Shown: positions 10,594 to 53,679, counted from the stretch's first letter. The stretch is 64,000 nt of DNA from Gemmatimonadota bacterium (GCA_039589995.1 JBDHGH010000002.1:1014-65013); one strand, 5' to 3'. Notes: generated by a model from the sequence alone, not told the origin. A program made the numbers and translations.

Positions 10594-11337
10594 GTGACGC
10601 GCGACCTACAGTTAACCCATCAACGGGTGTCGTACTCCGAGGGTGGCGTTGGCGCCCCGATCATTCTCATACACGGCCTGGGCGGTTCCAGTCGCTGGTG
10701 GTTCCCACTCTTCCCCGAACTCACGTCAGCCCAACTAAGGATCATCGCACCAGATTTGCCGGGGTTTGGCCGGACCCCCGGCCCGACTCTCTCAATTAAA
10801 GATGCGGCAAGAGTCGTCGTGGAACTGGCGGATCACCACAAGTTGGGCCACTTCTTTCTCGCCGGCCACTCGATGGGGGGTGCCATCGCCGCCGAAATAG
10901 CCGCCGACTACGGTGGGCGCGTACGCCGCCTGATACTCGTCGACAGCGCCGGCATACCGCACCGTCTTTCGGGCCGTTGGGTCGGGCGAGTGATAAGGCC
11001 CTGGACCTGGTGTCCACTCGGCTTCTATAGAACGCTTCTGGGTGACGTCATTCGCTCCGGTCCGGGCAATATGCGCGCAGGCATCCGAATAGTCCGGCGC
11101 TATGACATCCGGCCGCTGCTCGGCCGCATCGACATCCCCACCCTCCTGCTCTGGGGCGAGAAAGACAGCCTGACCCCAGTCGAAAACGGACACACCATCG
11201 CGAAGGGACTGGCACACGGCCGCCTCGAGGTCATCGCCAAGGCTCGACATCTGCCGATGGTGAGTGACCCCAGCGCGACGTCACGATTGATTCTGGAGTT
11301 CTTGAAGGAAGAGCTCGAAGCGGTCAGTGGCGGCTAA
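10594..11337 (+). CDS. alpha/beta hydrolase
   Basis: ORF 10450..11337. The upstream part overlaps hyuB and is Arg-rich junk, and a GTG at 10594 gives VTRDLQLTHQRVSYSEGG. It has HGLGGSSRWW and the nucleophile elbow GHSMGG. Confidence 0.85.
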   Translation: MTRDLQLTHQRVSYSEGGVGAPIILIHGLGGSSRWWFPLFPELTSAQLRIIAPDLPGFGRTPGPTLSIKDAARVVVELADHHKLGHFFLAGHSMGGAIAAEIAADYGGRVRRLILVDSAGIPHRLSGRWVGRVIRPWTWCPLGFYRTLLGDVIRSGPGNMRAGIRIVRRYDIRPLLGRIDIPTLLLWGEKDSLTPVENGHTIAKGLAHGRLEVIAKARHLPMVSDPSATSRLILEFLKEELEAVSGG

Positions 11338-12128
11338 TCGGCACTTAACATCTCGGCGGTTAGCTGTGTGCCTGGCACGTACTCGGTAAGCTCAAGGATC
11401 ACCGATCCGACTTTCAGCTTGGTCACGATCTTTACCGGCATGCGCCTCTCATCATCCGTGAGGTAAATCTCCGCCTCCCCACTCTCGGAGAAAATTCCCT
11501 TCGCTTTGATGATGGGACGAACAACAATGGTCGAGAACTTACCGGCGGGCACCTTGATGTCCTCACGACGCAGGACTTTGATGATCACGGGGTTGCGATC
11601 CCAGCGGAAATAGTTGTTCCATTCGTACGTCTCGCCGACCTCCAAGCGCCTCGAGCGTACAAAGTAGACAAACGACGCATCATCGAGCGGGTTGGCCGGG
11701 ACCGAATCGCTCTCCCCATCGTTCCTCTTATAGGTGCCATTCTCGAGGTCGAATCGATAATCCCAGTATCGTTCGTAACTGCCTTGATGGGTATCCTGGA
11801 CGTAGCGACGACTGGACAAGACATACACGTCGAGCCACGACTCTTGTAGGTCCTCGAGCTTGTAGAATGGCGTGGATCCCTTGATCAGCGACTTAACGTG
11901 ATAGGTCGGATAGCCGGCGATTGTGTCGATCCCGGCAACTTGCATATAGGCCTGTCCGACTTTCAGCGGGCCAAACTTGACCTTGTAGTCGAGGCGTTCC
12001 CCCACTCCGAACGGAACGGAGGCCAACGCCGGCTGTTCCACCGCTTCGGTCGATGAGACCGCCTGACCGAACACGTAGGCAGGTGCGAAAGCGATGAACA
12101 GAAGCGTGGCCGCCAGAGTCTTCATCAT
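11334..12128 (-). CDS. DUF3108-like secreted protein
   Basis: Signal peptide MMKTLAATLLFIAFAPAYVFGQ. GERLDYKVKFGPLKVGQAYMQV... and the overall beta-rich pattern resemble DUF3108. Family recalled by eye only. Confidence 0.6.
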   Translation of the reverse strand: MMKTLAATLLFIAFAPAYVFGQAVSSTEAVEQPALASVPFGVGERLDYKVKFGPLKVGQAYMQVAGIDTIAGYPTYHVKSLIKGSTPFYKLEDLQESWLDVYVLSSRRYVQDTHQGSYERYWDYRFDLENGTYKRNDGESDSVPANPLDDASFVYFVRSRRLEVGETYEWNNYFRWDRNPVIIKVLRREDIKVPAGKFSTIVVRPIIKAKGIFSESGEAEIYLTDDERRMPVKIVTKLKVGSVILELTEYVPGTQLTAEMLSAD

Positions 12129-12844
12129 CCCCTCAGCAACCCGACATAGTCACGTGCTGCGCGCCAGACAGACTGTCGGCTGGGACGGACTCGTCGATCG
12201 TATCGAGCTTCGGCTTCCGTTTCTTCGACTCGCCGCGTGTGCGGTGCCACAGCCAGGAGTAGCTCCAGGCTCGCGGCCCAACCGTCGCGCCTGACGACCC
12301 GGGCTTCATCTTGATCTCTAAGCGCCTTTCTCAGCAGGCCTACCCGATAAGCGCGAAGTCCTGAGATCGGATCGCTGACGCCCTCGGGCAGTTCCAGCTT
12401 CCGCTCCAACCACGGCAACCCTCTGCGCACCCAACGGACGGCACGCGGTGCGGACCTTCCATTGGGCGGTTGAGCGGCAACGACGAGGTCGGCTCCGCCT
12501 TCGACCCGCCTCACCATCCCGGGAATCGCGTGCGGCTCCTCGGTGAAGTCGGCCTGTAGCGTTACCACGACGTCTCGACGTGGGTACGAAGCCCGGGAGA
12601 TCGCTTCCCGGAGAAGTCTCTCCAGAGCAGCGCCGTGGCCCTGGCGATGCTCGTTGCGCAAGATCTCCAAAGGAAGCACTTGCGTGTAAGGCGAGACAAC
12701 CTCCGCGGTGCGATCGGTTGACCCGTCGTCGAGGAAGAAGATTTGATAATCACGCCCAAACTCCGACATGACCTGTCGGATTTTCCAGAGAAGAACGCCC
12801 GCCGTATTCTCTTCGTTATGGGCCGGAATGCAGATATAGATCAC
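12125..12844 (-). CDS. family 2 glycosyltransferase
   Basis: MIYICIPAHNEE...IFFLDDGSTDRT, the GT2 N-terminal DxD-type signature. It overlaps the next gene by 4 nt. Confidence 0.85.
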   Translation of the reverse strand: MIYICIPAHNEENTAGVLLWKIRQVMSEFGRDYQIFFLDDGSTDRTAEVVSPYTQVLPLEILRNEHRQGHGAALERLLREAISRASYPRRDVVVTLQADFTEEPHAIPGMVRRVEGGADLVVAAQPPNGRSAPRAVRWVRRGLPWLERKLELPEGVSDPISGLRAYRVGLLRKALRDQDEARVVRRDGWAASLELLLAVAPHTRRVEETEAEARYDRRVRPSRQSVWRAARDYVGLLRG

Positions 12845-12913
12845 AGTTGAGACGACTCTTACGTGTATATGTTCTTCGGTGCTACACTGCCGCGCTCGGC
12901 AAGCAGGGCCCCG

Positions 12914-13672
12914 CTAATCCCCAGTAGTACTACCAACCGGGGCCAGGTCGGTTCCCGGCGGCGACGTTTTCCACCTCTTATGATGCCAGAAATACTGGTC
13001 CGGGTAAAGCCGTACACGCCTTTCCAGTTCCTCTACCCACTTCTTTGTAAGCTCGAGAACTCGTTCCTTGATGTCACCACCCTCCGGGTGTTCGAGCCTG
13101 ACAAGCCAGCCGTGGTACTCACGCGGACCCACACGTTGCACCCCACCAACGAGGACTGGCACGCCCGTACGCAGCGCCAGAAGAGCCGGCACCCGATGGG
13201 TTGAAGCGGGTCGTCCGAACCAGGGGACGAACACTCCTTCCTTTCTGGCATCCTGATCCGCGACGAACGCGACCAGTCTCCCGGCAGCCAAGCTTTCCTT
13301 GAAGCGGCCCCAGGGATTCGCTCGATCGATCAGACCCATCCCGAGATTTCGCCTGTACCGCTCCACCAGCGGGGTGATCAGCGGGTTTCGCATCCCTTGC
13401 ATGACAGCATCGACAGGATAGCCCAAGGCTGCCAACGCCGATCCGGCCAAATCCCAATTGCCGAAGTGTCCACTGACGATGACGGCGCCCCGACCTTCCG
13501 CATATGCAGCCTTCAGTGCGTCGCGCCCCTCGATCTCGATGACACGCCGGCGTACCTCTTCGAGCCCGCGACGCGAGACATAGGGCGTGCTCAGCCACTC
13601 CCTACCGGCGTGACGGAACGCGGACCTGGCGGCACTCGTCACCCATTCCTCGGATTTCCCTGGGAAGGCCAA
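12914..13672 (-). CDS. lysophospholipid / lipid A (LpxL/HtrB-family) acyltransferase
   Basis: HFGNWDLAG (HX4D-type acyltransferase motif), VAFVADQD, VPWFGRPASTHRVPALLALRTGVPV. The family-like sequence continues upstream of the TTG at 13672 (see finding). Confidence 0.85.
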   Translation of the reverse strand: MAFPGKSEEWVTSAARSAFRHAGREWLSTPYVSRRGLEEVRRRVIEIEGRDALKAAYAEGRGAVIVSGHFGNWDLAGSALAALGYPVDAVMQGMRNPLITPLVERYRRNLGMGLIDRANPWGRFKESLAAGRLVAFVADQDARKEGVFVPWFGRPASTHRVPALLALRTGVPVLVGGVQRVGPREYHGWLVRLEHPEGGDIKERVLELTKKWVEELERRVRLYPDQYFWHHKRWKTSPPGTDLAPVGSTTGD

Positions 13673-13830
13673 GGCGAGATGATCCTCGACAACCTGACTG
13701 CGCCAGCCGAGCCTGTAGGCTAAGCCGCCAAGCCCCTCGCCCAGCCGCTCGCCAACGGCTGGAGGTGTACGAGCCAGTACTCCGAGGACCGCGCGCGACG
13801 CTCCATACTCGAGGACGTAGCGAAGGCGAG

Positions 13831-15660
13831 TCAGCGGACCGTCACTCCTCCCTGGGGCGCTCCTTCTGGCATCGCAAACTGGAGGTCGTAGAGGCGCCGA
13901 TAAACACCGTTTCGCTCGAGGAGGTCCTGGTGCCGCCCCGACTCCACTATCCGTCCGTCCTCCAGCACGACGATATGGTGCGCTCCCTGGATCGTCGACA
14001 AGCGATGCGCCACGACTATGACAGTGCGGTTAGCCATCAGTCTGTCGATCGCCTGTTGGACCAAGCGCTCGGACTCGGTATCGAGCGACGAAGTGGCTTC
14101 ATCGAATATCAGCAACGGTGGATCTCGAAGTATTGCCCGCGCGATGGCGACCCGCTGACGCTGGCCGCCCGAAAGACGTACGCCGCGATCTCCGAGCACC
14201 GTCTCGTAGCCCTCGGGGAGCTGAGAGATGAACTGGTGAGCGTTCGCCGCTGTCGCCGCGGCCTCGATCTCGTCTTGCGTGTATCGGTCGGGTTCGCCGT
14301 AAGCGATGTTCGCGCGAACCGTGTCATGGAAGATCACTGTCTCCTGGGAAACGACACCGAGCAGATCTCGCAGTGAATCGAGTCGAACCTCGTCGATCTC
14401 TACACCGTCGATCATGATCCGCCCGCTGGACACTTTGTAGAACCGCGGCAGAAGATCGACGATGGTGCTTTTGCCCGCCCCGGAGGGACCTACCAGTGCT
14501 ACGACTTCACCGCACCGCACCTCGAAGTTCACCCCCGTGAGCACTTCCTCTTCGCCGTCGTAGGCAAAGTGCACGTCCTCGTAAGTGACCGCCTGCTCGA
14601 ATTGTTCGATCCTTCGACCACTCTCCTGATCATCCTCGACGTCGGTATCGAGTATTTCGACGAAACGGTCGGCTGCAGCCAGCGACGTCTGCGCGCGCGC
14701 CGGCAGTGTTGTCAGAGCCTTGATCGGCGATTGGACCCTTAGCGAGATCGTCAGGAAAGTGAGGAACGCCTCGGCCGTCATCTCACCGCTGAACACAAGC
14801 TGAGCGCCCAGCCAAACCAGGACCAAGGTCACGATGGTGCCCAGGACCTCGGAGATTGGCGAGCTCAGTAGCCGCAACCGCTCGGTACGAACGAAAGTCT
14901 TGAAGTACCTTTGGTTCGTACGCCTGAAGCGCTCGGACTCGTAGCCCTCTGCACCGTAGGCTTTGACGAGCCGCGTACCCGATGCCGACTCCTGCAGCAA
15001 GCTGGTCAACTCGCCCTGGGCATCGTACGCTCGGCGGAATCCATGCCGCAGGCGACCGAGCAACGGTTTGATGAATCCCAGAAACAAGGGAGCCGTGACC
15101 AGCACGATCAGCGTAAGCTTCCAAGAGATCAGCACCAACATTGCCACAAACGCGAACAACGACACCACATGCTTGAGCACGTCTGCGACCGTGTACGTGA
15201 TGATGTCTTTCGTTTGGTTGGTGTCGTTGAACACTCGCGCCAGCAGTTGGCCCGCTTTTTGGCGATCGAAGTATCCGAGGGGCAGTCTTTGCAGGTGGGT
15301 GTAAAGTTGGTTACGCATGTCTCGGACGATTCCCTCGCGCACCTTCACGCCCAAGGCTTCCGCTGTATAGAAGAATGCGTTCTTCAGAAGCAGGCCCACC
15401 ATTACCAGGATAACGACGTTGCGTAGGGCCGCACTGGGGCTCGACTGGTCGATGAAGGGTCCGACGGTGGCTTCCAAGAGCTGGTCGATCATCGCCCCAC
15501 CGCCGGGGATCGCCGTCGCCTCTCCGAACAGAGAGCGGAGGAACGGGATGAGCAGGACCATCGTGAAACCATCGAGGAGCGACCCGAGCGCCATCGCCAC
15601 AAGGCTGGCCAAGAACACCATCCGGTAAGGGCTGAGGTACTTGAGCAACCTAGCGTACAT
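13831..15660 (-). CDS. msbA: ABC transporter permease/ATPase, MsbA-like lipid exporter
   Basis: Six-TM exporter domain plus NBD with Walker A GPSGAGKST, signature LSGGQRQRVAIARA and Walker B LLIFDEATSSLD. It lies next to a lipid A acyltransferase homologue. Confidence 0.85.
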   Translation of the reverse strand: MYARLLKYLSPYRMVFLASLVAMALGSLLDGFTMVLLIPFLRSLFGEATAIPGGGAMIDQLLEATVGPFIDQSSPSAALRNVVILVMVGLLLKNAFFYTAEALGVKVREGIVRDMRNQLYTHLQRLPLGYFDRQKAGQLLARVFNDTNQTKDIITYTVADVLKHVVSLFAFVAMLVLISWKLTLIVLVTAPLFLGFIKPLLGRLRHGFRRAYDAQGELTSLLQESASGTRLVKAYGAEGYESERFRRTNQRYFKTFVRTERLRLLSSPISEVLGTIVTLVLVWLGAQLVFSGEMTAEAFLTFLTISLRVQSPIKALTTLPARAQTSLAAADRFVEILDTDVEDDQESGRRIEQFEQAVTYEDVHFAYDGEEEVLTGVNFEVRCGEVVALVGPSGAGKSTIVDLLPRFYKVSSGRIMIDGVEIDEVRLDSLRDLLGVVSQETVIFHDTVRANIAYGEPDRYTQDEIEAAATAANAHQFISQLPEGYETVLGDRGVRLSGGQRQRVAIARAILRDPPLLIFDEATSSLDTESERLVQQAIDRLMANRTVIVVAHRLSTIQGAHHIVVLEDGRIVESGRHQDLLERNGVYRRLYDLQFAMPEGAPQGGVTVR

Positions 15661-17247
15661 CTAGGAAGCCTCACCGCGGGGCTTGAGCAGGGCCACCGGC
15701 AGGATCATCTCGTCCGGGCTTATTCCACCGTGCAAGAAGCTGTCACGATACCGGGATTGGTACTCCCGCAACTTCGTGGGATACACGAAGAAGAAGTCCT
15801 CGCGGGCGACAAGGTAGTTGGTTTTCAGGCCGCCAGCGGGTAGTCGTATCGAGCCCCCGTCGGCGACCGAGAAGACGTTCGAGGGTGTCTCCGCTCGCAG
15901 GTCGTCTCCGTACTTGTAGCGCAGGCTTTGGGTCGCGTCTCGTTTCGCGAACACGGTCGTGGGTCGATGGCAGTGGACAGAGCCGTGGTCGGTGGTGAGC
16001 AGAACGCGTACGCCACGATCCCGCAGGATCTTCAGCGCCTTGCGCAGATCGGATCCTTCGTACCACGTGACGGTCAATCGACGCAGGGCTTCGGTATCGC
16101 GAGCCATATCGAACAGCAGTTGCGACTCACCACGTCCGTGGGTCAGGAGGTCCACAAAATTGAATACGATCCCGATGGCACGCCGCTCGTCCAACAGCGC
16201 AGGCAGTCGTCGGAGCATCGCGTCTCCATCGCTCGCCGTGTTCACCTTCTCGTAGTGCGACGGAACCGCACCATCGGTGAGGCGCCCAATCTGTTCGGCA
16301 AACAGTTCCCCCTCGAACGAGTTCAGGCCGGTCGTCTCGAAGGCCTCCGGCCACCCGGGCCGCGACCGGGCCAACTCGTCCGGAAAGACCCCACTGAATA
16401 TGGCGTTCCTCGAATACGGCGTCGCCGTCGGAAGGATCGAGATATAGAGATCCTCCTCCACTTCGAAGTCCTCGTCGATGATCGATTGAAGAGCTCGCCA
16501 CTGGTCCAATCGCAGGCAATCGATGACAATCAGAACCGAAGGCTCATCTCGGGCCAACAGCGGGAGAAAAAAGCTGGGGACGATGTCCACCGACAGCGAC
16601 GGACGCTCCGCCTGGCCCACCGCGACCCAACTGGCGTAGTTCTCTGCGACGAAATCGGAAAACTGCCGAAGCGCATCGCCCATCAGCGTGCGCAACGACT
16701 CCAGCAGTCCGACCTCGTCGGCTGCGCCGAGAGCCAGTTCCCAGTCTACGAGGTCGGAGTACACATCCGTCCAATCGCGCCACTCGCGAGCGTGATCGAT
16801 CCGCGACAACATATCGGTGTACGCTTGAACGAAGTCGCGAGCCATCTGTTCGTGGCGAAGACCCGGTCCTTCGAGAATGCGCGTCACCACCGAGGCCACT
16901 TGTCGAGGACTCGTCGGCTTGACGATGTAGTCGTCGACCCGCCGAGCGATCGCATCGGTGAGCGTCGTTTCCTCTTCGCTCTTCGTCACCATGACGACGG
17001 CGATCCGCGAATCGACACCCCGGATCTCCCTCAACATTTCGGTTCCGGTTCGGCCAGGCATTTCCTGGTCGAGAAGAACGAGGTCGTAGCTGCGGCGGCG
17101 AAGTTGGCTGAGCGCGTCGTCGCCGTTCGGTGTAGTATCGACTTCGTATCCGCGTTGTTGGAGAACGAGACGGTGCGGCAGGAGCAAGTCTACTTCGTCA
17201 TCGACCCAGAGTATCCGACCCTTCACCTGTCGCGTGACTGGCATCAC
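15661..17247 (-). CDS. PorX-like response regulator: REC domain fused to PglZ / alkaline-phosphatase-superfamily domain
   Basis: REC (ILWVDDEVDLL...DLVLLDQEMPGRTG...VVMVTKS...YIVKP), a helical linker, then a PglZ-like domain (VLIVIDCLRLDQW...PTATPYSRNAIFSG...LLTTDHGSV). The 528-aa length and architecture match T9SS PorX. Confidence 0.8.
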   Translation of the reverse strand: MMPVTRQVKGRILWVDDEVDLLLPHRLVLQQRGYEVDTTPNGDDALSQLRRRSYDLVLLDQEMPGRTGTEMLREIRGVDSRIAVVMVTKSEEETTLTDAIARRVDDYIVKPTSPRQVASVVTRILEGPGLRHEQMARDFVQAYTDMLSRIDHAREWRDWTDVYSDLVDWELALGAADEVGLLESLRTLMGDALRQFSDFVAENYASWVAVGQAERPSLSVDIVPSFFLPLLARDEPSVLIVIDCLRLDQWRALQSIIDEDFEVEEDLYISILPTATPYSRNAIFSGVFPDELARSRPGWPEAFETTGLNSFEGELFAEQIGRLTDGAVPSHYEKVNTASDGDAMLRRLPALLDERRAIGIVFNFVDLLTHGRGESQLLFDMARDTEALRRLTVTWYEGSDLRKALKILRDRGVRVLLTTDHGSVHCHRPTTVFAKRDATQSLRYKYGDDLRAETPSNVFSVADGGSIRLPAGGLKTNYLVAREDFFFVYPTKLREYQSRYRDSFLHGGISPDEMILPVALLKPRGEAS

Positions 17248-17924
17248 AGTTTCCAGGTATAGCTATACCAGGTAGCAACGGCCCGACCGGCACGCTCGGC
17301 CGGTTCGAACACCCAATCGCGGGCTTCTCTCATCAAATCAGAGTTGTACCTGGAATCGGGGGTAGGTGGATCCAGCCGCACGCTGTCCACTGCGCCCGCC
17401 TGGTTGATGAAGACCCAAACCGTCACCTCCTTACCCCGCACGTTGGATGGGCGGTTGAGCGGCGCCATGATCACACCTCGCGGCGTGGGAGGGATCAGTC
17501 GTCTGAGGCCGGACATCGCGTTGCCCTGATCGCCGCGGCCTTCGCCGCCCGGCAACCCCGCCCCGGTCTCCTCGCCCTCGCGGGTACCCTCGCCCGGATC
17601 GCGCAGCTCGATCTCGTTGAACGCCAATACGGGCTCCTCGAGTTGCTCTTCGACCTGCACCGGTTCGATCACAGGTGTCTCGGGCCGGGGTGGAATCTGG
17701 ATTTCGACGGGAGGACGCAACGCGATGGCTCTCATACCGCCACCTCCCGCCGCAGCAACAGGATCGCCGCTACCGGGGCCGGCTGCTGCATACGGAGTCA
17801 ACCGCTCCGCTTCCCTCTGAAAGAAGAAGAATAGTATCAGGTGGAATAGAACCGACAGGAGCAATCCGACGCGCCAGGTCTTACCTTCCCGACGAAGTCG
17901 CTGTTCAACTTGCTCCACAGCCAT
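17244..17924 (-). CDS. TonB-family energy transducer-like protein
   Basis: N-terminal TM anchor (WRVGLLLSVLFHLILFFFF), a Pro/Glu-rich spacer, and a C-terminal TonB-like domain (VTVWVFINQAGAVDSVRLDPPTP...REARDWVFEPAERAGRAV). Confidence 0.7.
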   Translation of the reverse strand: MAVEQVEQRLRREGKTWRVGLLLSVLFHLILFFFFQREAERLTPYAAAGPGSGDPVAAAGGGGMRAIALRPPVEIQIPPRPETPVIEPVQVEEQLEEPVLAFNEIELRDPGEGTREGEETGAGLPGGEGRGDQGNAMSGLRRLIPPTPRGVIMAPLNRPSNVRGKEVTVWVFINQAGAVDSVRLDPPTPDSRYNSDLMREARDWVFEPAERAGRAVATWYSYTWKL

Positions 17925-17945
17925 CGAACCACGTTTCCTTCCCGA

Positions 17946-19187
17946 TTATCGTCTGTCATCTGCATCGTCGGCTGCGTTCGTTACGCCAAAGTCGACGATC
18001 TGCACGAGCTGCCCGTCGCGGTCAAGGATCCATGCCTTGCCCACCCCTGACACCCGTACGTCGGTGGCGAACTCTGTGTGTCGGGCAACGCCGATCACAC
18101 GCGGCTGATCACCGCTAACATCGACCACCGCCACGCCCTCCGTACCCGCGGCGACGTACAGACGGTCGCCCTCGAGGTCGGCGGCGTAGGCGAACCTCAC
18201 CCCTGTATACTGTTGTACCACGCGGGGTGTAGCGGGGTCCGACGCGTCCAGCACGTAGACCCCGTTGGTTCCCGCGGCGATCGCCAACCGATTACCGTGA
18301 CCTCGCACGGTTCGCCCGGCCGCAGGCAGTACGATCTCGCCCACTTTCTCGAGATCCGCGCTATAGGCGGCCAGACGATCCTCGGTCAACACCCAACCGA
18401 CACGCCCGTAGCCGGGGAACGTAATGTCGGTGACGTAGTCCGGCTTCTCGAACCCAGCAACCGTTTCTACGTCATAGTCGTCGCCGTTCCTACGAATTCC
18501 GAGCAGCCGAAGCGAGTCGAGGCCGGCTACGGCCAACCGGGACTGAAAGGCCTCGATCACACCGCCGCCGCGCTCATCGATCACCTGCCCCTGCACTGAG
18601 TCGTCCTCGACCGAAAAGCTGATCAGGTTCGAGTACGTGCTCAAGACCAGAAGGTCGAGAGACGGAATGACGGCCACGTCTTCAATCCCTCGAACGCCGC
18701 TCCCGCGAGCGTGGATCGAGCCATCCTCTCTGATGATTCGCGCACCGCTCGAACCCACCACGGCGGCCCCGCCCGGGAAATAGGTCATGCGGTCGGGTAC
18801 CAAGTCTAACGGAATGTCGCGGAAAGTGTAGTCGAGAGACGGACCCGCGGCCATTCGCCTTGAATAGCTCTTGTCCATCTCCATCCCAACCAGGAACCCG
18901 ATCCCGGCGCCGAGAATTCCCGCCACGAGCCCCACGCAGCCCTGGCTGCTGCAGCCCGACTCGAGCGTATTGTTGTTAGATGTGAATACGTAGGCAGGGA
19001 TCCCTACAAGGAGAAAGCCCCCGACGGCGAGGTAGAATCGCTTGTAGCTCTTGGGCGAATCTTGAGCCGACCCAACGGTAGGCAGGGCAACGACTAAGGC
19101 GATGGCAAGAGCGATAGCTGTCGAGCGCCGCGATCGTGCCGTCCCAAACAGGCCGGCAGATCCGGCACTATTCTTCGTCATTGACAA
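17946..19187 (-). CDS. membrane-anchored beta-propeller protein with LVIVD-like repeats
   Basis: N-terminal signal and TM segments, then repeated motifs (LAVAGLDSLRLLGI, VYVLDASDPATPRVV, LYVAAGTEGVAVVDVS) typical of LVIVD repeats. Confidence 0.6.
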   Translation of the reverse strand: MSMTKNSAGSAGLFGTARSRRSTAIALAIALVVALPTVGSAQDSPKSYKRFYLAVGGFLLVGIPAYVFTSNNNTLESGCSSQGCVGLVAGILGAGIGFLVGMEMDKSYSRRMAAGPSLDYTFRDIPLDLVPDRMTYFPGGAAVVGSSGARIIREDGSIHARGSGVRGIEDVAVIPSLDLLVLSTYSNLISFSVEDDSVQGQVIDERGGGVIEAFQSRLAVAGLDSLRLLGIRRNGDDYDVETVAGFEKPDYVTDITFPGYGRVGWVLTEDRLAAYSADLEKVGEIVLPAAGRTVRGHGNRLAIAAGTNGVYVLDASDPATPRVVQQYTGVRFAYAADLEGDRLYVAAGTEGVAVVDVSGDQPRVIGVARHTEFATDVRVSGVGKAWILDRDGQLVQIVDFGVTNAADDADDRR

Positions 19188-21387
19188 CCTCGAATGTGCG
19201 CAGTTGTCTCCCCATGCGCTCGGCGAGGTTATCCCATATCCTCAGCCTGATTTCGTACTCGCCCGCAGGCACTTCTTGCGGATCCAGTGACAGGTACTCC
19301 GTCACCCGGTCACGTCCATCCATCTTGACCTCTCGGCTGAACTGCAGTTCCAGCCGATCATCGCCGACTATGCTGAATCCCCAGGCGTCGGCAAGATCAC
19401 CGATAATCGCACCGATTCCGCTTCGGGAGATGCTCTTGACCCTGACCTGGATAGAAACTTGGTAAGAGGCGAAGCCCTCCGAATCCTGATCCAAGCCATA
19501 GATCTCATAGTAGATATGTACAGGGTCACCGGAATTGTACTCCAATGCCGCATTAGGCCAGACCTCGTAGTCCGACCGCTTCACCGGCTCTTCCACCAGC
19601 GGCTTGATATAGTCGGCGACCAGTATGTCGCTGACCTTCATCGAATCTTCCGGGTAAGCCTCGACGTCGAAGCTTTCGCGCGTCGCCGCCGATCGCCAAG
19701 TCACTTCGTCGCGCGCCTCGACCGCTGCCACCAACTGTTGGCCCGGCGCGAGAATTAGCCGCCAGCTCCTGTACTCGTCGATGTCCGGCGACTCGTCGTA
19801 CTCCAATGTCTCCGTATTGGTGCGTTGCAACACCTTGTCCCCGGCCGCGTTGATCAAGAACAAGCCCGTCTCTATTTCACCCTCGTCCAGGTCGAGCCCA
19901 CGAGCGAATTCCTCCAGCGGCAACGCCGCGTGGACCTCGAGCGCGACCTCGTCCGGAGTCTCGCCGCGGAATCGTGCCAATTGGATCGGCATTTCCATCA
20001 ATTGTGGAATCGACGGAATATTCACGTACGTCACCGGCTGCAGGTAACGGTAGTTCTCGGCGACGAACTTGTAATCTCCCGCGAAGCGCGCATTCAAGTA
20101 GCCCGGCATCTGTTGGAAGATGAACACCGGACCGTCATAGCCATAGCTCCAAATAATAGACCGCCGCCCAACCGCATACGGATTTCCCGTGACATACGGA
20201 CTCGCCCCAAACGACGCGATCGACATGGGGTGGCCATAGCGAACGAAGATGATCCCCTGATCGGTTTGCCACCCACGCAACCCGGCCTCGGGAGCCGAGA
20301 AACGAAGGTCGGCATATGAGACCCGAGATAGGTGTTCCAATCGCCTCTCGTTCGCATCGGTGAGATACAGCGGGTCGGACAGCAACCAGTACGTCTCATT
20401 GAAATCCTCCCGGCCGTCCTCGTCAAGCCGCATGTACTCCCGGGCCTCATCGCGCCGCATCACCTCGGCCAAGCTCTCGACTTGCCGCCTTTCCTCATCC
20501 GTCAGTCGCTTCAGGCCGTCTTCGAATGCCTCCGATGCCGATTCCTCTCGACCGGCTGCGTGCAACCCAAGTCCCAGGTACAGAAACGGTAGGGGCCGAT
20601 CGGGGTGGGCGGATCGGAGCCGCCGCGCAATCGACAGGTACTCGCCCAGCCTCTGCTCGTCCAGCAGCTGTCCCATCAGCCGCACCGAAGCACCCACGTG
20701 CTCCGGATCGAAGCGCAGCGCCGCCCGATAGTGCTCGATCATCTCGTCCTTGGTCATCTGCCCCGAGCCCTTGATCGGCGTCGTCTGACTCATGTACTCG
20801 TTGCCGTAGCGTACCGGGCCCTGGGTGCCACCAAAGCCATACGTTCCCATCGGATCGAAATCGTCCTGGGGCGGCCCCATGTTCAATGGGTTGAAACGCC
20901 GGTACTCGATCGTCCTATACCACAGCTCCTTGAGATACCCCAGGTTGAAGTGTACTTCGGCCAAGATCGACGGGTCGGACTGCTTCTCGGCTGCCGCCAG
21001 CGCTCGGTCGAACAAGCGGCCCGCGTCCACCTTCATGTGCTGCTTCAAGCGAAGGCGCGCCAACTCCAATAGGTAGCGGGGTTCGCCGGGGCTGATCCGC
21101 AGCGCTTCTAAGAGGAGGTTCTCCGCCTTCCTACGATCTCGCCAATCGGTCTCGATCGCATTGGCACTTTCGGTGTAGATCCGCCCGAGGTAGTAGTAGG
21201 GATCGCTCATCTTGGGGGCGGCTTTGCGGGCCTTTTCAAACTCAGCGAGGGCGCGCGCGGTATCTCCAGATAGGGCGGCATCGAGGCCCACTTGGATGTA
21301 CTCCCGGGCTACATCTTCCTGTGCCGATGCGGTCTGAGCCGACACCAACACAAGAGCCGATAGCAGGACAGAGATGGCGTGCTTCAC
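19168..21387 (-). CDS. TPR plus GWxTD domain protein, secreted
   Basis: Signal peptide MKHAISVLLSALVLVSAQTASAQ, N-terminal TPR-like repeats, and the motif GLRGWQTDQGIIFVRYGHP, which is the GWxTD domain signature. Confidence 0.8.
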   Translation of the reverse strand: MKHAISVLLSALVLVSAQTASAQEDVAREYIQVGLDAALSGDTARALAEFEKARKAAPKMSDPYYYLGRIYTESANAIETDWRDRRKAENLLLEALRISPGEPRYLLELARLRLKQHMKVDAGRLFDRALAAAEKQSDPSILAEVHFNLGYLKELWYRTIEYRRFNPLNMGPPQDDFDPMGTYGFGGTQGPVRYGNEYMSQTTPIKGSGQMTKDEMIEHYRAALRFDPEHVGASVRLMGQLLDEQRLGEYLSIARRLRSAHPDRPLPFLYLGLGLHAAGREESASEAFEDGLKRLTDEERRQVESLAEVMRRDEAREYMRLDEDGREDFNETYWLLSDPLYLTDANERRLEHLSRVSYADLRFSAPEAGLRGWQTDQGIIFVRYGHPMSIASFGASPYVTGNPYAVGRRSIIWSYGYDGPVFIFQQMPGYLNARFAGDYKFVAENYRYLQPVTYVNIPSIPQLMEMPIQLARFRGETPDEVALEVHAALPLEEFARGLDLDEGEIETGLFLINAAGDKVLQRTNTETLEYDESPDIDEYRSWRLILAPGQQLVAAVEARDEVTWRSAATRESFDVEAYPEDSMKVSDILVADYIKPLVEEPVKRSDYEVWPNAALEYNSGDPVHIYYEIYGLDQDSEGFASYQVSIQVRVKSISRSGIGAIIGDLADAWGFSIVGDDRLELQFSREVKMDGRDRVTEYLSLDPQEVPAGEYEIRLRIWDNLAERMGRQLRTFEVVNDEE

Positions 21388-21645
21388 GGCTGAGTCCTTT
21401 GCTTAGAGCTGTCGAGAACCCGCGCATCTAAAACTTACGGGGGGAATCGAGAAAGGAAAAGGGCCGGCGGTCTCAGTGGCTTTTAAGTACATACAAGACA
21501 GGGTTTTGAGAGCTTAGAGCCAGCGAGCTACCGAGCAGTCCCTCCACGCCCCTTGCCGCTTCAGATGCCGCCAGCCAGTTTAGCCACCACTCAGCGAAAC
21601 ACGGACGATTCCTAGCGAGTCGCGACAAAAAGGGAGAGCCAGGCC

Positions 21646-21780
21646 ATGAACGGGCTTGAAGGCGCGATTCTCATTCCCATTCTCATACTGGGATGCACCG
21701 CGATTATCTACTATGGATTGATCTCCGTCCGGGCGCGTCAACTCGAGTCGCGCCGCGACGATGATCCCTCCAGCGACTAA
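21646..21780 (+). CDS. possible 44-aa single-TM micro-protein
   Basis: Not in the ORF track. The ATG at 21646 is preceded by AAAAAGGGAGAG. Translation is MNGLEGAILIPILILGCTAIIYYGLISVRARQLESRRDDDPSSD, one hydrophobic helix plus a charged tail, 30 nt upstream of kbl. Confidence 0.3.
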   Translation: MNGLEGAILIPILILGCTAIIYYGLISVRARQLESRRDDDPSSD

Positions 21781-21810
21781 TCCTCGAGCCCTTACCAGCC
21801 GGGAGGCTAA

Positions 21811-22998
21811 ATGAACGGGCTATTCGACCGCTTGCGGACCGAGCTCGACGAGATGCGGGAGCAGGGGGTGTACAAGGAGCTGATCCACCTAGATTCACCG
21901 CAGGATGCCGTTGTGAGTATCGATGAGCTCGGCCGTGAAGTAATCAACCTGTGCTCTAACAACTACCTGGGTCTCTGCAACACACCCGAGGTCGTCGCTG
22001 CGGGGTCGGCGGCATACGACGAGTTTGGGGCCGGTACATCGTCGGTTCGATTCATCTGCGGAACGTTTACACTGCACCGGCGGCTCGAAGACAGGATCGC
22101 CGAATTCCTCGGCCTCGAATCAGCACTGACTTACGTCTCCTGCTGGAACGCCAACACCGGTTTGACGCCGACGTTCCTGGGCGAGGAGGACGCGCTCATT
22201 TCCGACGAATTGAACCACGCGTCGATCATCGACGGCGTGAGGGCAACGCGAGCGCAGCGCAAGATTTACAAGCACTCGGACATGGACGACCTGGAGCAGG
22301 CACTGAAGGATACCGCCAGCGCAAGAAGCCGGTTCATCATTACCGACGGTGTCTTCTCCATGGAAGGCGACATCTGCAAGCTTCCGGAAATCCTGGATCT
22401 GGCGGAAGAGTACGATGCCACGGTCACCGTTGATGATTCCCACGCGACGGGCGTTCTCGGTGACACCGGACGCGGCACGCCAGAGCACTACGGACTCCAC
22501 GGCAAGGTGCCGGTTATCACCAGCACACTAGGCAAGGCCCTGGGCGGCGCCGCCGGTGGCTTCACCGCGGGCCCCTCCGAACTGACCGACTATCTGACGC
22601 AACGGTCGCGGCCAATGCTCTTCTCCAATGCGCTACCGCCGGCTACCACGGCGCACTCCCTCGCCGCGATCGACTACCTCGACAGTCATCCTGAATTGAT
22701 ACAGAAGCTTCGAAGTAATACGGAGTACTTTCGCGAAAGACTGCTCGAGGCGGGATTCAACCCCATAGAGGGTGCGACACCGATCGTACCCATCATCATC
22801 GGCGAGACCGCTGAAGCCATTAAGATGAGCCGCATGCTGCTCGATGAAGGGGTCTTCGTGATCGGCTTCGGCTTCCCCGTTGTTCCGCACGGCACGGCGC
22901 GCATCCGCTGCCAGGTCTCGGCTGCCCACGAGATCCAGCACCTGGACGCCGTGCTCGACGCCATGAAGAAGGTGGGCACTCAGCTAGGAATAATCTGA
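21811..22998 (+). CDS. kbl: glycine C-acetyltransferase (2-amino-3-ketobutyrate CoA ligase)
   Basis: MNGLFDRLRTELDEMREQGVYKE...NLCSNNYLGL...SVRFICGT...DELNHASIIDG...DDSHATGVLG...STLGKALGG, the class II aminotransferase / Kbl pattern. Confidence 0.9.
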   Translation: MNGLFDRLRTELDEMREQGVYKELIHLDSPQDAVVSIDELGREVINLCSNNYLGLCNTPEVVAAGSAAYDEFGAGTSSVRFICGTFTLHRRLEDRIAEFLGLESALTYVSCWNANTGLTPTFLGEEDALISDELNHASIIDGVRATRAQRKIYKHSDMDDLEQALKDTASARSRFIITDGVFSMEGDICKLPEILDLAEEYDATVTVDDSHATGVLGDTGRGTPEHYGLHGKVPVITSTLGKALGGAAGGFTAGPSELTDYLTQRSRPMLFSNALPPATTAHSLAAIDYLDSHPELIQKLRSNTEYFRERLLEAGFNPIEGATPIVPIIIGETAEAIKMSRMLLDEGVFVIGFGFPVVPHGTARIRCQVSAAHEIQHLDAVLDAMKKVGTQLGII

Positions 22999-50920: not shown

Positions 50921-51237
50921 TCGAATCACGCTGGGTGGAGGGGCCAAGTGAATGCCGAAATATAGGGCGACGGCGAGCGGAACGGCCACCGGAGCCTATC
51001 AATCTGCAGCTAAAGAACTTGACTCCGGGCAACCGGGACTGTTTATTGATTTCGATGTTTCCCCGGTTTCCGCCGTATCATCAAGTAGAAACAGACTGAT
51101 CCGGCTCTCTTTCCCGTTACCAACGTCGAGCTGCTGTAGCGCGGCACCGGCTTCTATATAGCATCACGTCTGCTAACCGGCAGACTCTACGACTGACCGT
51201 CATGCTCCAACACAAACGCCGATTTGAGGAGGCGGTT

Positions 51238-53679
51238 ATGAGAGCGTTAGCCCCACTCACGTTGTTCGCAGGCTTGATCGTGGCCACGGCAGCACCTCCA
51301 GACCTTGTGGCACAAGACGTGGAGGAGCTTGGTCGCAAGCACGGGGTCAGACCACCGCCGGGCTATTACGAGGTCCTGGCTGCCGATCCCACGGCTTACC
51401 AGTTCAACGAAGTCTGGAGGGAGATCGCCCGCCAAGTGAGCGAGCAACGACGTGCTCTCGCCCGCGCGGGCGACTGGGCCGGGCTGAACGCGCACCTCGC
51501 TGACGGGCCGTCGAGGGCCGCGGCTACCGCGGCTGGAATCGCAGTTACTGGAACGTTCCGTTTCCCAGTGATCACCGGCATGTTCTCGGACAGCACGCAT
51601 GCCCTCCTTCCGGACACCGCCGGCTTGAATGCCAAACTCTTTACTACAGGAGCTGCACCGCCCTACTCGATCACGAAGTACTACGACGAGGTGTCCAACA
51701 CATTGCTGACCGTTACCGGTGACGTCGTCGGTTGGTTCACGGTGGACAGTGCCGCAGCGTGGTACGCGGGTACCAACAATGGGTTGAACCCCGGAACCGA
51801 CCGCCTCGGTGACTACATTCAAGAGCTGCTGAACCAAGCCGACCCGTTGATCGACTTCAGCCAATACGACAACGACAATAACGGCACCGTCGATCTGATC
51901 GCGATACTGCATCCTCTGGTGGGCGGAGAGTGCGGTACATCGAACATCTGGGCACACCGCTGGGTCTACAGGGTTTGGAAGGGTGCGCCTTACACAACCG
52001 CCGATGGCGTGACGGTGGACGACTATGTCGTCCAGGCGGCGGTCGGTGGCACCGGCGGGTGCACGGCCTCCGATACCATGGAAATCGGCACGATGACCCA
52101 CGAACTGGGTCACGGCATACTCAATATCCCCGACCTGTACGACACGGGCGGCAACTCGGAAGGCATCGGCGAATGGGGACTCATGGGCTCCGGGAATTGG
52201 AATGTCCAGAACAGTCCTGCCCATCTCGGGGCGTGGTCCAAGGATGAGGTTGGTTGGATCGCGATCGACACGGTAGACGCGTCACAGGGCACCGGCTCCC
52301 AGACGCTTAGCTCCGTCGTGCCGAATGACACCGCGATGAGGGTCGATATCAGCGGTACCAACGAGTACTTCCTTCTCGAGAACCGTCAGGGTAACGGCTC
52401 GGAAACGGGAAATCTGAACGGTCCGGGCCTGCTCATCTGGCACATCGACCCCGATCGGATCGCCGCGCGACGGAACGCGAACCAGGTGAACGCCATCGTA
52501 CCACACGGAGTCGACCTCGAGCAGGCCGATGGATCGGATCACCTCGGCAACAACGTCAATCGCGGTGATACGGGCGACCCCTGGCCAGGCTCAAGCAACA
52601 ATACAGTCTTCGGACCGTCGACGACGCCGAACTCCGAGCTGAACGACAACTCGAACTCGGCGCTTCGGGTCGACAGCATCACCCAGAACGGCGACGGTAG
52701 CGTCGGCTTCCGGGTGAACTTCAACGTCGTGAACGAGCGGGTCACCACCAGCATAGGTGTAGGGACCGAGGTGATCGTCGACGGGTCGAACGAAAACGCG
52801 CCCCACGACGTCGTCTGGGCGTTCCCGAGCAATCACAGCATCTCCGTCGATTCGATACAGGGCGACACGCTGATGCGCTACGTCTTTCAATCGTGGAGCG
52901 ACGGCGGTGCACGTTCGCACAACGTCGCAGCCGACGCCACGCCCGATACCTTCATCGCCAACCTGGATACCGAGCACCGGTTGAAGGCGACGACGGATAT
53001 TCAGGGCAACATCACTAGCTCGGAGACGCTCGACGCAAGCGGAGTCGCCTGGGTGGCGCCGACACAAAACGTCAGCCTGAAGGCGACACCTGCGACCTCG
53101 GGTTTCTTTTTCGTCGAGTGGACCGGCGACGTGTCCTCGACCAACGACTCCATCGAGGTGAACATGGCGCAGCCCCAGCAGGTGCACGCCGAGTTCGGCA
53201 CGGCCGTAGCCATCTCCACCACCGCACTGACCGCCGGCGTTATTGGCGCCGCTTACGTTGACACACTGATGGCGACGGGCGGCTCGGGCAACTTCACCTG
53301 GACTCAGGTGGGAGGCGACGCGCTGCCGGCCGGACTCAACATGAACGCCCAAGGTGTAATCACAGGCGCACCCGAGGAAGACGGCTCGTTCGCGATGGTC
53401 TTCCAAGCCGTATCGGGCGCGTTGTCCAGCACACAGGACACGGTGACGATGTCCGTGACCACGCCGACCCTGGCTCTGAGCAACGTGGTCAATCATCTGC
53501 TGGGCCCGATTCCAGTGCTGTCGGACGATGAAGAGAACTACCTCGACATCATCGGCAATAACAACGGACGCTTCGATGTCGGTGACTTCCGGGCCTACCT
53601 ACAGGATACCGGCGTCGTCACCGACGTTGTACCCGCGACGACGAAGGACCAGCCGGCGCATAAGGAGGAAGGACGATGA
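51238..53679 (+). CDS. M6-family (immune inhibitor A-like) zinc metalloprotease with Ig-like domains and a C-terminal dockerin-like loop
   Basis: The ATG at 51238 is preceded by GAGGAGG. Signal MRALAPLTLFAGLIVATAAPPDLVAQ. Zinc site MTHELGHGILNIPDLYD. A putative-Ig segment (TGGSGNFTWTQVGGDALPAGLNMNAQGVITGAP). Tail LDIIGNNNGRFDVGDFRAYL. Confidence 0.85.
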   Translation: MRALAPLTLFAGLIVATAAPPDLVAQDVEELGRKHGVRPPPGYYEVLAADPTAYQFNEVWREIARQVSEQRRALARAGDWAGLNAHLADGPSRAAATAAGIAVTGTFRFPVITGMFSDSTHALLPDTAGLNAKLFTTGAAPPYSITKYYDEVSNTLLTVTGDVVGWFTVDSAAAWYAGTNNGLNPGTDRLGDYIQELLNQADPLIDFSQYDNDNNGTVDLIAILHPLVGGECGTSNIWAHRWVYRVWKGAPYTTADGVTVDDYVVQAAVGGTGGCTASDTMEIGTMTHELGHGILNIPDLYDTGGNSEGIGEWGLMGSGNWNVQNSPAHLGAWSKDEVGWIAIDTVDASQGTGSQTLSSVVPNDTAMRVDISGTNEYFLLENRQGNGSETGNLNGPGLLIWHIDPDRIAARRNANQVNAIVPHGVDLEQADGSDHLGNNVNRGDTGDPWPGSSNNTVFGPSTTPNSELNDNSNSALRVDSITQNGDGSVGFRVNFNVVNERVTTSIGVGTEVIVDGSNENAPHDVVWAFPSNHSISVDSIQGDTLMRYVFQSWSDGGARSHNVAADATPDTFIANLDTEHRLKATTDIQGNITSSETLDASGVAWVAPTQNVSLKATPATSGFFFVEWTGDVSSTNDSIEVNMAQPQQVHAEFGTAVAISTTALTAGVIGAAYVDTLMATGGSGNFTWTQVGGDALPAGLNMNAQGVITGAPEEDGSFAMVFQAVSGALSSTQDTVTMSVTTPTLALSNVVNHLLGPIPVLSDDEENYLDIIGNNNGRFDVGDFRAYLQDTGVVTDVVPATTKDQPAHKEEGR

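Follow-up and report, generated by a model that had tools for sequence, protein, structure and literature searches.

Background

Why should the gene for a response regulator known from protein secretion stand directly before the gene for an MsbA-like lipid exporter? This question is raised by a stretch of 64,000 nucleotides from a Gemmatimonadota bacterium (GCA_039589995.1 JBDHGH010000002.1:1014-65013), which was analysed at its full length and is called the window in the following. At positions 11334-21387 the window carries eight co-directional genes, all on the minus strand, here called A to H in their order: a GWxTD/tetratricopeptide repeat (TPR) protein, a propeller-like protein, a TonB-like protein, PorX, an MsbA-like exporter, an LpxL-family acyltransferase, a glycosyltransferase of family 2 (GT2) and a DUF3108 protein. 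The reading that we favour, with a confidence only somewhat above even, is that the block is a Gemmatimonadota operon for late assembly and export of lipopolysaccharide (LPS), carrying porX and, in some lineages, an upstream envelope module of TonB type.

Gemmatimonadota are abundant in soil and sediment, and to our knowledge their envelope biology is almost unexplored. The host genome is a metagenome-assembled genome (MAG) of 4.37 Mb in 323 contigs with a completeness of 89.5%. An initial annotation, made from the sequence of the window, had described the eight minus-strand genes with their coordinates, order and junction lengths; when these were read again from the open reading frames (ORFs) together with scans of Pfam and NCBIfam, the same genes, overlaps and gaps were obtained.

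Conservation of the gene order

Two samples of loci were used for comparing gene order. Sample 1 was centred on PorX and is unbiased as to neighbours; it comprises 40 loci from 12 families of the phylum, numbered f1 to f12. Sample 2 was centred on orthologs of gene A and comprises Gemmatimonadota MAGs, among them 'Candidatus Kutchimonas denitrificans' and a large number of Longimicrobiales. Genes were called by GC content at codon positions, and all statements on synteny rest on matches from tblastn and hidden Markov models (HMMs).

In sample 2, genes A to H have the same order and orientation in every locus with enough sequence. Complete arrays were found in 10 loci of the window's own family, where A is 58-76% identical, and in 12 loci of Longimicrobiales type, where A is 36-38% identical. 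The arrangement is far beyond chance: two lineages that diverged deeply have the same eight-gene order, in no fewer than 22 loci besides the window's. The linkage proposed in the initial annotation is therefore not confined to this genome, the order being kept both in the window's family and in Longimicrobiales. In the window the ends of the block are marked by a divergent aminotransferase gene (from 21811, plus strand) and by a convergent alpha/beta hydrolase gene ending at 11337. Flanking genes are common to the own-family loci only and are not those of the Longimicrobiales lineage, which means that the block was kept while its surroundings changed.

Sample 1 shows which parts of the array are most widespread. 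porX is directly followed by an msbA-like gene in 31 of 32 loci, covering nine families (f1-f9) of the window's class. The D-E-F-G-H block is present in f1, f2, f5 and f6, the pair C-D in f1, f5 and f6, and all eight genes in f1, f5 and part of f6. Judged by this distribution, the array appears to consist of four joined modules, namely A-B, C-porX, porX-msbA and lpxL-GT2-DUF3108. The overlaps of stop and start codons at C/D, D/E and E/F are maintained across lineages. What had been taken as one unit of eight genes is therefore a joined order in at least 22 loci whose parts are separable: A-B occurs away from porX, porX-msbA occurs alone, and the place between C and porX can take up LPS genes.

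Neighbours of porX

Such insertions between C and porX interrupt the array in three lineages (loci L044, L063 and L065), and the identifiable inserts are a Kdo/WaaP-family LPS kinase and a heptosyltransferase of glycosyltransferase family 9 (GT9). Elsewhere porX is flanked by GT9, GT4 and GT2 genes, and in f2 by a divergent LptF/LptG gene. By family assignment, porX has LPS genes beside it in all Gemmatimonadota families sampled, with differences in which genes these are.

For comparison across phyla we used the Flavobacterium johnsoniae PorX sequence from the PDB alignment together with a metagenome scan, which gave an independent sample of 80 PorX loci; a protein-database search with the window PorX returned close Gemmatimonadota relatives only. 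Among the metagenome loci with PorX of Gemmatimonadota type (at least 47% identity), msbA is the next gene in at least 24 of the 31 with downstream sequence, and tsaE, the gene of the tRNA t6A ATPase, in none. The opposite holds for PorX of other types from the group called FCB (Fibrobacteres-Chlorobi-Bacteroidetes), at 35-42% identity, where tsaE is next in 26 of 29 loci and msbA in none.

Among the loci from outside the phylum (L142-L182 and L102), Flavobacterium-type contigs were seen to carry a divergent HD-domain gene and an lpxD-lpxC/fabZ-lpxA cluster on the other side of porX. This is a second and different link to lipid A, which may or may not be meaningful.

Proposed function and points against it

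According to the favoured reading, whose biochemical steps are derived from family membership and fold, gene F would add secondary acyl chains to lipid A at the cytoplasmic face of the membrane, and the MsbA-type exporter E would flip lipid A-core. The short GT2 protein G would make a polyprenyl-phosphate sugar donor for periplasmic decoration, and the secreted DUF3108 barrel H would bind acylated lipid, or pass it on, in the periplasm. porX would be encoded in the same message directly ahead of msbA, by which the level of PorX is proposed to be tied to LPS export. In this and two further lineages these genes would be preceded by A, a secreted TPR-GWxTD scaffold, B, a membrane-anchored propeller, and C, a TonB-like anchor, which probably form a periplasm-spanning accessory complex. 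On this reading PorX and the LPS machinery would be linked, be it physically or by regulation.

Several observations weigh against this reading. Gene E scores 540.7 bits on the MsbA model TIGR02203, under the curated cut-off of 602, and gene F is under every LpxL equivalog cut-off (for TIGR02207, 104.5 bits vs 297.8). Most families have porX-msbA only, f3, f4 and f7-f9 being without the rest, and in f10-f12, which belong to another class or classes, porX stands beside GT9 genes and not msbA. The array is modular, with A-B 60 kb from porX in f3 and beside a TonB-dependent receptor gene. Furthermore, 19 of 139 PorX-positive genomes are without SprA, the translocon in type IX secretion systems (T9SS). 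The gaps of 69 nt between F and G and of 21 nt between B and C could hold internal promoters outside the models used for scanning. Finally, a gene order conserved within one phylum can persist without functional coupling.

The last point leads to an alternative in which independent A-B-C, porX-msbA-lpxL and GT2-DUF3108 units merely stand head to tail by inheritance, and PorX acts on the T9SS only, as in Bacteroidota. It would account for the separate occurrence of the modules, for the insertions between C and porX and for the strong tracking of SprA by PorX described below. The tsaE gene beside porX in other FCB bacteria speaks in the same direction, since a housekeeping gene as unrelated as this shows that porX readily keeps neighbours without an obvious functional link. 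Inertia alone can hardly explain why LPS genes adjoin porX in all Gemmatimonadota families sampled while being different ones (MsbA, GT9, GT4, LptF/G, Kdo kinase). Nor does it sit well with the stop/start overlaps at C/D, D/E and E/F, which are maintained across lineages, or with flanks that are not conserved between the two lineages sharing the array. We regard inherited order without coupling as unlikely, but as an explanation to be reckoned with.

PorX and the type IX secretion system

Gene D (15661-17247, minus strand) codes for 528 amino acids with the architecture of a receiver domain (PF00072) followed by a PglZ domain (PF08665). It scores 520.6 bits on NF052313, for which the equivalog cut-off is 300, and can be aligned over its whole length to 8TED and 7PV7, solved structures of PorX (F. 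johnsoniae and Porphyromonas gingivalis), with an E-value of about 1e-106. The own genome has this one PorX only.

The residues that matter in P. gingivalis PorX are D14, D15, D58, T86, K108, D239, T272, D361, H365, D415 and H416; among those, D58 is the phospho-acceptor aspartate, T272 the catalytic threonine of PglZ, and D239, D361, H365, D415 and H416 are zinc ligands (PMC9757075). Their equivalents in the window PorX are D16, D17, D60, T88, K110, D243, T276, D366, H370, D420 and H421, so that all 11 are conserved. The same 11 residues are kept in all 41 aligned Gemmatimonadota PorX sequences, with one change from threonine to serine. To judge from the alignments, gene D is a true PorX ortholog with every functional residue conserved.

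In Bacteroidota, LPS serves as the anchor of T9SS cargo, and phosphorylated PorX binds the motor protein PorL. The own genome of the window has the T9SS translocon SprA/Sov, and among 151 genomes of the phylum PorX and SprA are both present in 120 and both absent in 11, with PorX only in 19 and SprA only in 1 (Fisher p = 3.6e-8). PorX is tied to the T9SS in Gemmatimonadota too, though not strictly. A search for GldM (TIGR03517) gave zero matches in 31 genomes, SprA-positive ones included, and this search is therefore uninformative as to the absence of a T9SS.

PorX has been reported as limited to the FCB group and as always occurring with the T9SS, and has been described in Bacteroidota as an orphan regulator (PMC9757075). 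The window PorX agrees with the Bacteroidota protein in being a full-length ortholog with the phospho-acceptor and the zinc and catalytic residues of PglZ kept, and with SprA in the genome. It differs in being embedded between a TonB-like gene and msbA in an LPS locus, whereas the FCB sample from outside the phylum has tsaE next and never msbA, and in that some Gemmatimonadota relatives keep PorX without SprA.

For P. gingivalis it has been described that T9SS cargo is attached to A-LPS and that a working T9SS is required for lipid A 1-phosphatase activity (PMC8545088, PMC12704123). These ties give a biological reason for regulating the supply of LPS together with secretion. A rationale based on the T9SS cannot be the whole story, because the 19 genomes mentioned above keep PorX without SprA. 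Three of the assemblies without SprA consist of 1-3 contigs and belong to one genus of family f2 (G058, G082 and G100). In the two of them whose porX loci were compared (L010 and L012) porX-msbA-lpxL-GT2-DUF3108 is kept, with an intact PorX and the divergent LptF/LptG gene upstream of porX.

A more speculative extension of the favoured reading, which we hold to be rather unlikely, makes PorX also a phosphorylation-gated partner of lipid A export in Gemmatimonadota. It would act on MsbA or on LPS flux, directly or via its oligonucleotide phosphodiesterase domain, in a role surviving the loss of the T9SS. The porX-lpx neighbours in Flavobacteriia would in that case be a hint at an ancestral function of PorX in the FCB group, the coupling of outer-membrane LPS supply to secretion, and A-B-C would feed into this as an envelope-spanning sensor or effector of TonB type.

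A step further, Gemmatimonadota PorX might, independently of the T9SS, have its primary role as regulator or partner of the LPS pathway, for example by gating MsbA or the flux of LPS via its receiver domain or via its phosphodiesterase domain acting on a nucleotide signal, with any role in the T9SS secondary or derived. The genomes with PorX and without SprA would fit this, above all the three of 1-3 contigs with their two loci keeping porX-msbA-lpxL-GT2-DUF3108, as would the phospho-acceptor and catalytic residues, all of which the PorX of SprA-less genomes keeps, and the abutting or overlapping of porX and msbA nearly throughout the class. We consider it decidedly improbable all the same, as 11 of the 12 genomes without PorX are without SprA too, D is orthologous over its full length to the PorX of the T9SS, and missing SprA in a MAG can be an assembly gap.

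Some further loci combine porX with T9SS features. In the family-f10 genomes G014, G022, G024 and G032, from another class, porX and sprA share a contig at a distance of 17-20 kb, and in the two f10 loci with both sides called porX is flanked by GT9 heptosyltransferase genes; their gene content suggests a larger LPS/T9SS neighbourhood in this family. In the single-contig family-f4 genome of 4,636,964 bp (L022, G067:C1) porX is followed by msbA, and the match to SprA has 1251 bits. In the window itself, positions 51202-53679 code for an M6-family metalloprotease of 825 amino acids that matches the 'T9SS-dependent M6-like' family weakly and in part (61 bits vs a cut-off of 600); it may be a T9SS cargo, and its distance from porX is about 30 kb.

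The lipid genes E to H

Gene E (13831-15660, minus strand, 609 amino acids) matches PF00664 (residues 64-309) and, further on, PF00005 (residues 374-524), that is, a six-helix exporter domain fused to one nucleotide-binding domain. Five such ATP-binding cassette (ABC) exporters are found in the own genome, and E is the top scorer among them on the MsbA model, with the runner-up at 502 bits.

Gene F (12914 to about 13834, minus strand, about 306 amino acids) belongs to the LpxL family of lysophospholipid/lipid A late acyltransferases, scoring 145.1 bits on PF03279 (gathering threshold 22.3), and its translation has the HX4D motif as HFGNWD. Searches of the own genome with tblastn and ortholog profiles gave F as the sole LpxL-family member, and G and H are likewise single-copy.

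Gene G (12125-12844, minus strand) is a short GT2 glycosyltransferase of 239 amino acids (PF00535, 75 bits). Its closest solved relatives are the dolichol-phosphate mannose synthase 5MLZ and ArnC, which points to a polyprenyl-phosphate sugar synthase. Its GT2 domain is closest to the undecaprenyl-phosphate sugar synthases ArnC/FlmF, which act in lipid A decoration, and to the archaeal and mycobacterial polyprenyl-phosphate mannose synthases, and the lipid A context is shared with the former. In contrast to these enzymes, G is without C-terminal membrane helices, as judged by length alone, and the cluster has no ArnT-like transferase or flippase.

Gene H (11334-12128, minus strand) codes for a secreted DUF3108 protein of 264 amino acids, scoring 112.4 bits on PF11306 (cut-off 26), with a plain signal peptide and no lipobox cysteine. 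The AlphaFold model, with a mean predicted local distance difference test score (pLDDT) of 83.6, is an open beta-barrel, and its Foldseek matches are the DUF1849 protein 6NTR (TM-score 0.54-0.58), the YmcC-like 3FZX, LprG, LolA and VioE. No sequence similarity between H and the LolA/LprG/YmcC carriers was detectable. DUF3108 has earlier been assigned a YmcC fold and described as an outer-membrane beta-barrel (PMC4364669).

Open beta-barrels of the LolA/LprG/YmcC class hold acyl chains. DUF3108 had been counted as a family of unknown function, as had GWxTD; for DUF3108 this no longer holds wholly, the modelled fold being like that of the LolA/LprG/YmcC lipid carriers. The predicted fold and the location beside a membrane exporter are shared with such carriers, for example with LprG of the mycobacterial LprG-P55 operon. 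Differences are that H is a DUF3108 protein lacking the lipobox cysteine and that the exporter here is an ABC protein and not one of the major facilitator superfamily.

Taken together, families and fold suggest that E-F-G-H cover the late acylation of lipid A and its flipping, together with a lipid-linked sugar step and a lipid carrier in the periplasm. This half of the array looks like housekeeping late LPS assembly and export and not accessory remodelling, because LpxL is single-copy, E is the best MsbA candidate and LpxC is present in the own genome. The initial annotation had suggested remodelling and export of a lipid or glycolipid tied to a T9SS-type regulator; the tie between porX and LPS genes stands and extends through the phylum, and remodelling gives way to core LPS assembly.

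In Proteobacteria, as in the msbA-lpxK operon of E. coli, msbA is co-transcribed with the gene of a lipid A enzyme. The array resembles this operon in that a putative lipid A flippase gene would be linked translationally to a lipid A biosynthetic gene. It differs in that the partner is an LpxL-family late acyltransferase and not the kinase LpxK, with E and F under the equivalog cut-offs, and in that the unit adds a response regulator, a GT2 protein and a protein of lipid-carrier fold.

That E-F-G-H make and export some other acylated glycolipid, by the logic of mycobacterial PatA (the acyltransferase of phosphatidylinositol mannosides, PIM), Ppm1 and LprG with its transporter, and that the MsbA and LpxL labels mislead, is very unlikely: F does score equally on the PIM acyltransferase model (105 bits) and the LpxL models (104-108 bits), all under their cut-offs, G resembles polyprenyl-phosphate mannose and hexose synthases, the fold of H matches LprG, a carrier binding PIM and lipoarabinomannan (LAM), and E is under the MsbA cut-off, but F is the sole LpxL-family gene in a genome having LpxC, E is the top MsbA scorer, and the inserts and flanks in relatives are classical LPS-core genes (GT9, Kdo/WaaP kinase, LptF/G).

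The upstream genes A to C

Gene A (19168-21387, minus strand) codes for 739 amino acids with an N-terminus resembling a signal peptide. It scores 61.3 bits on TIGR04514 (cut-off 28), matches several TPR families and has the motif GWQTD; on the Pfam GWxTD model (PF20094) it stays under the cut-off, with 23.3 vs 26.9 bits. Residues G372, W373 and D376 of the motif are invariant in 26 orthologs, and T375 is kept in at least 90%. In the AlphaFold model (mean pLDDT 80.8) helical repeats, with about eight TPR-like helical pairs, reach to about residue 335 and are followed by an alpha/beta GWxTD region (340-430) and two beta-sandwich domains (463-735).

Foldseek matched A to TPR proteins and, at low TM-score, to transglutaminases. 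Catalysis of transglutaminase type was rejected, as the TM-scores are about 0.13 and no cysteine or histidine is conserved at residues 330-460 among the 26 orthologs; with no catalytic cysteine or histidine conserved, A is not read as an enzyme. The transglutaminase match of the model probably reflects the beta-sandwich domains.

The own genome has four further full-length paralogs of A with TPR, GWxTD and beta-sandwich parts at 29-47% identity (C115:4273-6438, C33:830-2995, C164:8063-10168 and C8:9889-12033). Each stands in a different and unrelated context without B- or C-like partners. The idea that these paralogs have B and C partners of their own was rejected, since B and C are both single-copy in the genome by tblastn and ortholog profiles.

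For the C-terminal sorting domain of T9SS cargo (TIGR04183), one sub-threshold match only was found in the own genome, which gives no basis for calling A or B cargo. As a side observation, this sole match adjoins, on contig C72, the gene of a protein of 492 amino acids with weak GWxTD-like matches.

Gene B (17946-19187, minus strand, 413 amino acids) has N-terminal hydrophobic segments and is a putative membrane-anchored beta-propeller of LVIVD-like repeats. PF08309 (LVIVD) gives 23.1 bits against a cut-off of 20.2, yet no individual repeat passes alone, and a comparison of B with PDB sequences gave no match. Orthologs of B adjoin orthologs of A even where A-B is distant from porX.

Gene C (17244-17924, minus strand, 226 amino acids) has an N-terminal membrane anchor, a linker rich in proline, glutamate and glycine, and a TonB-C-like domain. 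Its score on the TonB C-terminal model TIGR01352, 24.2 bits, does not reach the cut-off of 27.1. When a profile made from 16 C orthologs was compared with PDB, the matches were to TonB chains only (best E-value 3.6e-4). C adjoins porX in families f1, f5 and f6, including loci without A-B.

Two genomes of family f3 keep a B ortholog behind their best A ortholog, at a distance of about 60 kb from porX (L099, 7539-12009; L100, 4637-12449). The pair is located between a divergent gene for a TonB-dependent receptor of the CarboxypepD_reg type (about 1050 amino acids) and a gene for a DsbA-like thioredoxin. This third gene was considered as an analog of the TonB-like gene C and rejected because of its identity as DsbA-like thioredoxin. 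In family f4 an A-like paralog is found 7-10 kb from porX. A-B is counted as a module of its own because the pair occurs away from porX in f3, and both its contexts, as assigned here, involve the TonB system.

The trio can be compared with the accessory proteins of the Tol-Pal system, TolA, TolB and CpoB. The likeness is one of architecture only, in the combination of a membrane-anchored protein with a TonB/TolA-like C-terminal domain (C), a putative beta-propeller (B) and a TPR protein of the periplasm (A). A relation in sequence is limited to the TonB-C-like domain; the cluster has no TolQR, ExbBD or Pal, B is itself membrane-anchored, and A carries the GWxTD and beta-sandwich domains. The likeness is one of resemblance and not of membership.

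Junctions, start codons and expression signals

The eight genes are closely packed. A and B overlap by 20 nt, or by 14 nt if B starts at the ATG at 19181, and B is separated from C by the gap of 21 nt. C and D overlap by 4 nt with GTGA common to both, and the TAG of porX directly abuts the ATG of E with zero spacer. E and F have CTGA in common, F and G are separated by the gap of 69 nt, and G and H overlap by 4 nt with ATGA common to both.

The start of F is unusual. No ATG, GTG or TTG is found before 13672, and the stop of msbA together with the start of F is CTGA (13831-13834) in 12 of 12 orthologs of the window's family. A GGAGG-like Shine-Dalgarno (SD) sequence lies about 10 nt upstream of CTGA, and there is no canonical start for a further 29-53 nt. 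Another lineage has GTGA as its msbA/lpxL junction, and the start in most Longimicrobiales loci is an ATG located 17-18 nt downstream from the msbA stop. The loci compared for this junction include L049-L061, L083 and L066. The match to PF03279 begins at residue 12 of the protein started at CTG, which argues for reinitiation at this codon coupled to termination of msbA. F probably starts at the CTG overlapping the TGA of msbA, by termination-reinitiation.

A promoter-like element, TTTTCC-N19-TAAGTTTT, is found at 21430-21460 on the minus strand, about 45-70 nt upstream of gene A. It is followed by a conserved leader GCGCGGGTTCTCGACAG and the SD sequence AAAGGA ahead of A. An alignment of 11 orthologous upstream regions gives CCTTTTCC, a spacer of about 19 nt and TAnnTTT[G/A], then GCGCGGGTTCTCGACAG and AAAGGA. 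The copy in the window is the only match of this composite motif on the minus strand of 11000-21900. The element resembles what we take to be the Bacteroidota -33/-7 promoter consensus, and on these grounds it may serve as the promoter of the block.

Consensus scans of the block gave no excess of internal promoters or terminators over shuffled sequence. The scan with the sigma-70 consensus found no minus-strand promoter at all; for this phylum the scan is therefore no evidence either way on internal promoters. No conserved element was found in the F-G intergenic region across orthologs.

A single transcript with translational coupling of the eight genes is what we infer from the sequence. One transcription unit fits the spacing, the overlapping stops and starts, CTGA with its SD sequence, the conserved order, the lone promoter-like element upstream of A and the lack of a terminator excess.

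The divergent intergenic region (21388-21810) has two further features. A block conserved in 11 orthologous loci with codon-like spacing coincides with a micro-ORF of 44 amino acids ahead of the aminotransferase gene. Additionally, GGCTAAnTTGGC and GGCAAGGG are found as conserved motifs at about 200-250 nt upstream of A.

Implications

In the literature searched there was no mention of GWxTD, PorX together with Gemmatimonadetes gave cargo domains only, and no genomic link between PorX and MsbA was described. The initial annotation knew of no described pathway combining the functions of the eight genes, and none was found in this search. The arrangement appears to be new in the literature searched and to be built from known parts.

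The array would give a first functional context to three poorly understood families, GWxTD, DUF3108 and the LVIVD-like membrane propeller. For GWxTD the context would be the envelope, with a TonB-dependent receptor beside A-B in other families, and for DUF3108 a lipid-carrier fold within an LPS operon. If only inherited gene order is behind it, the arrangement would still be a useful annotation rule for the phylum.

What stands out is an arrangement found phylum-wide in which porX is joined, stop codon to start codon, to the gene of a putative lipid A flippase, with LPS-core genes around it. Together with a PorX that in some genomes outlives the loss of the translocon, this junction and its surroundings lead to a testable hypothesis, namely that in Gemmatimonadota PorX may link LPS export with secretion.

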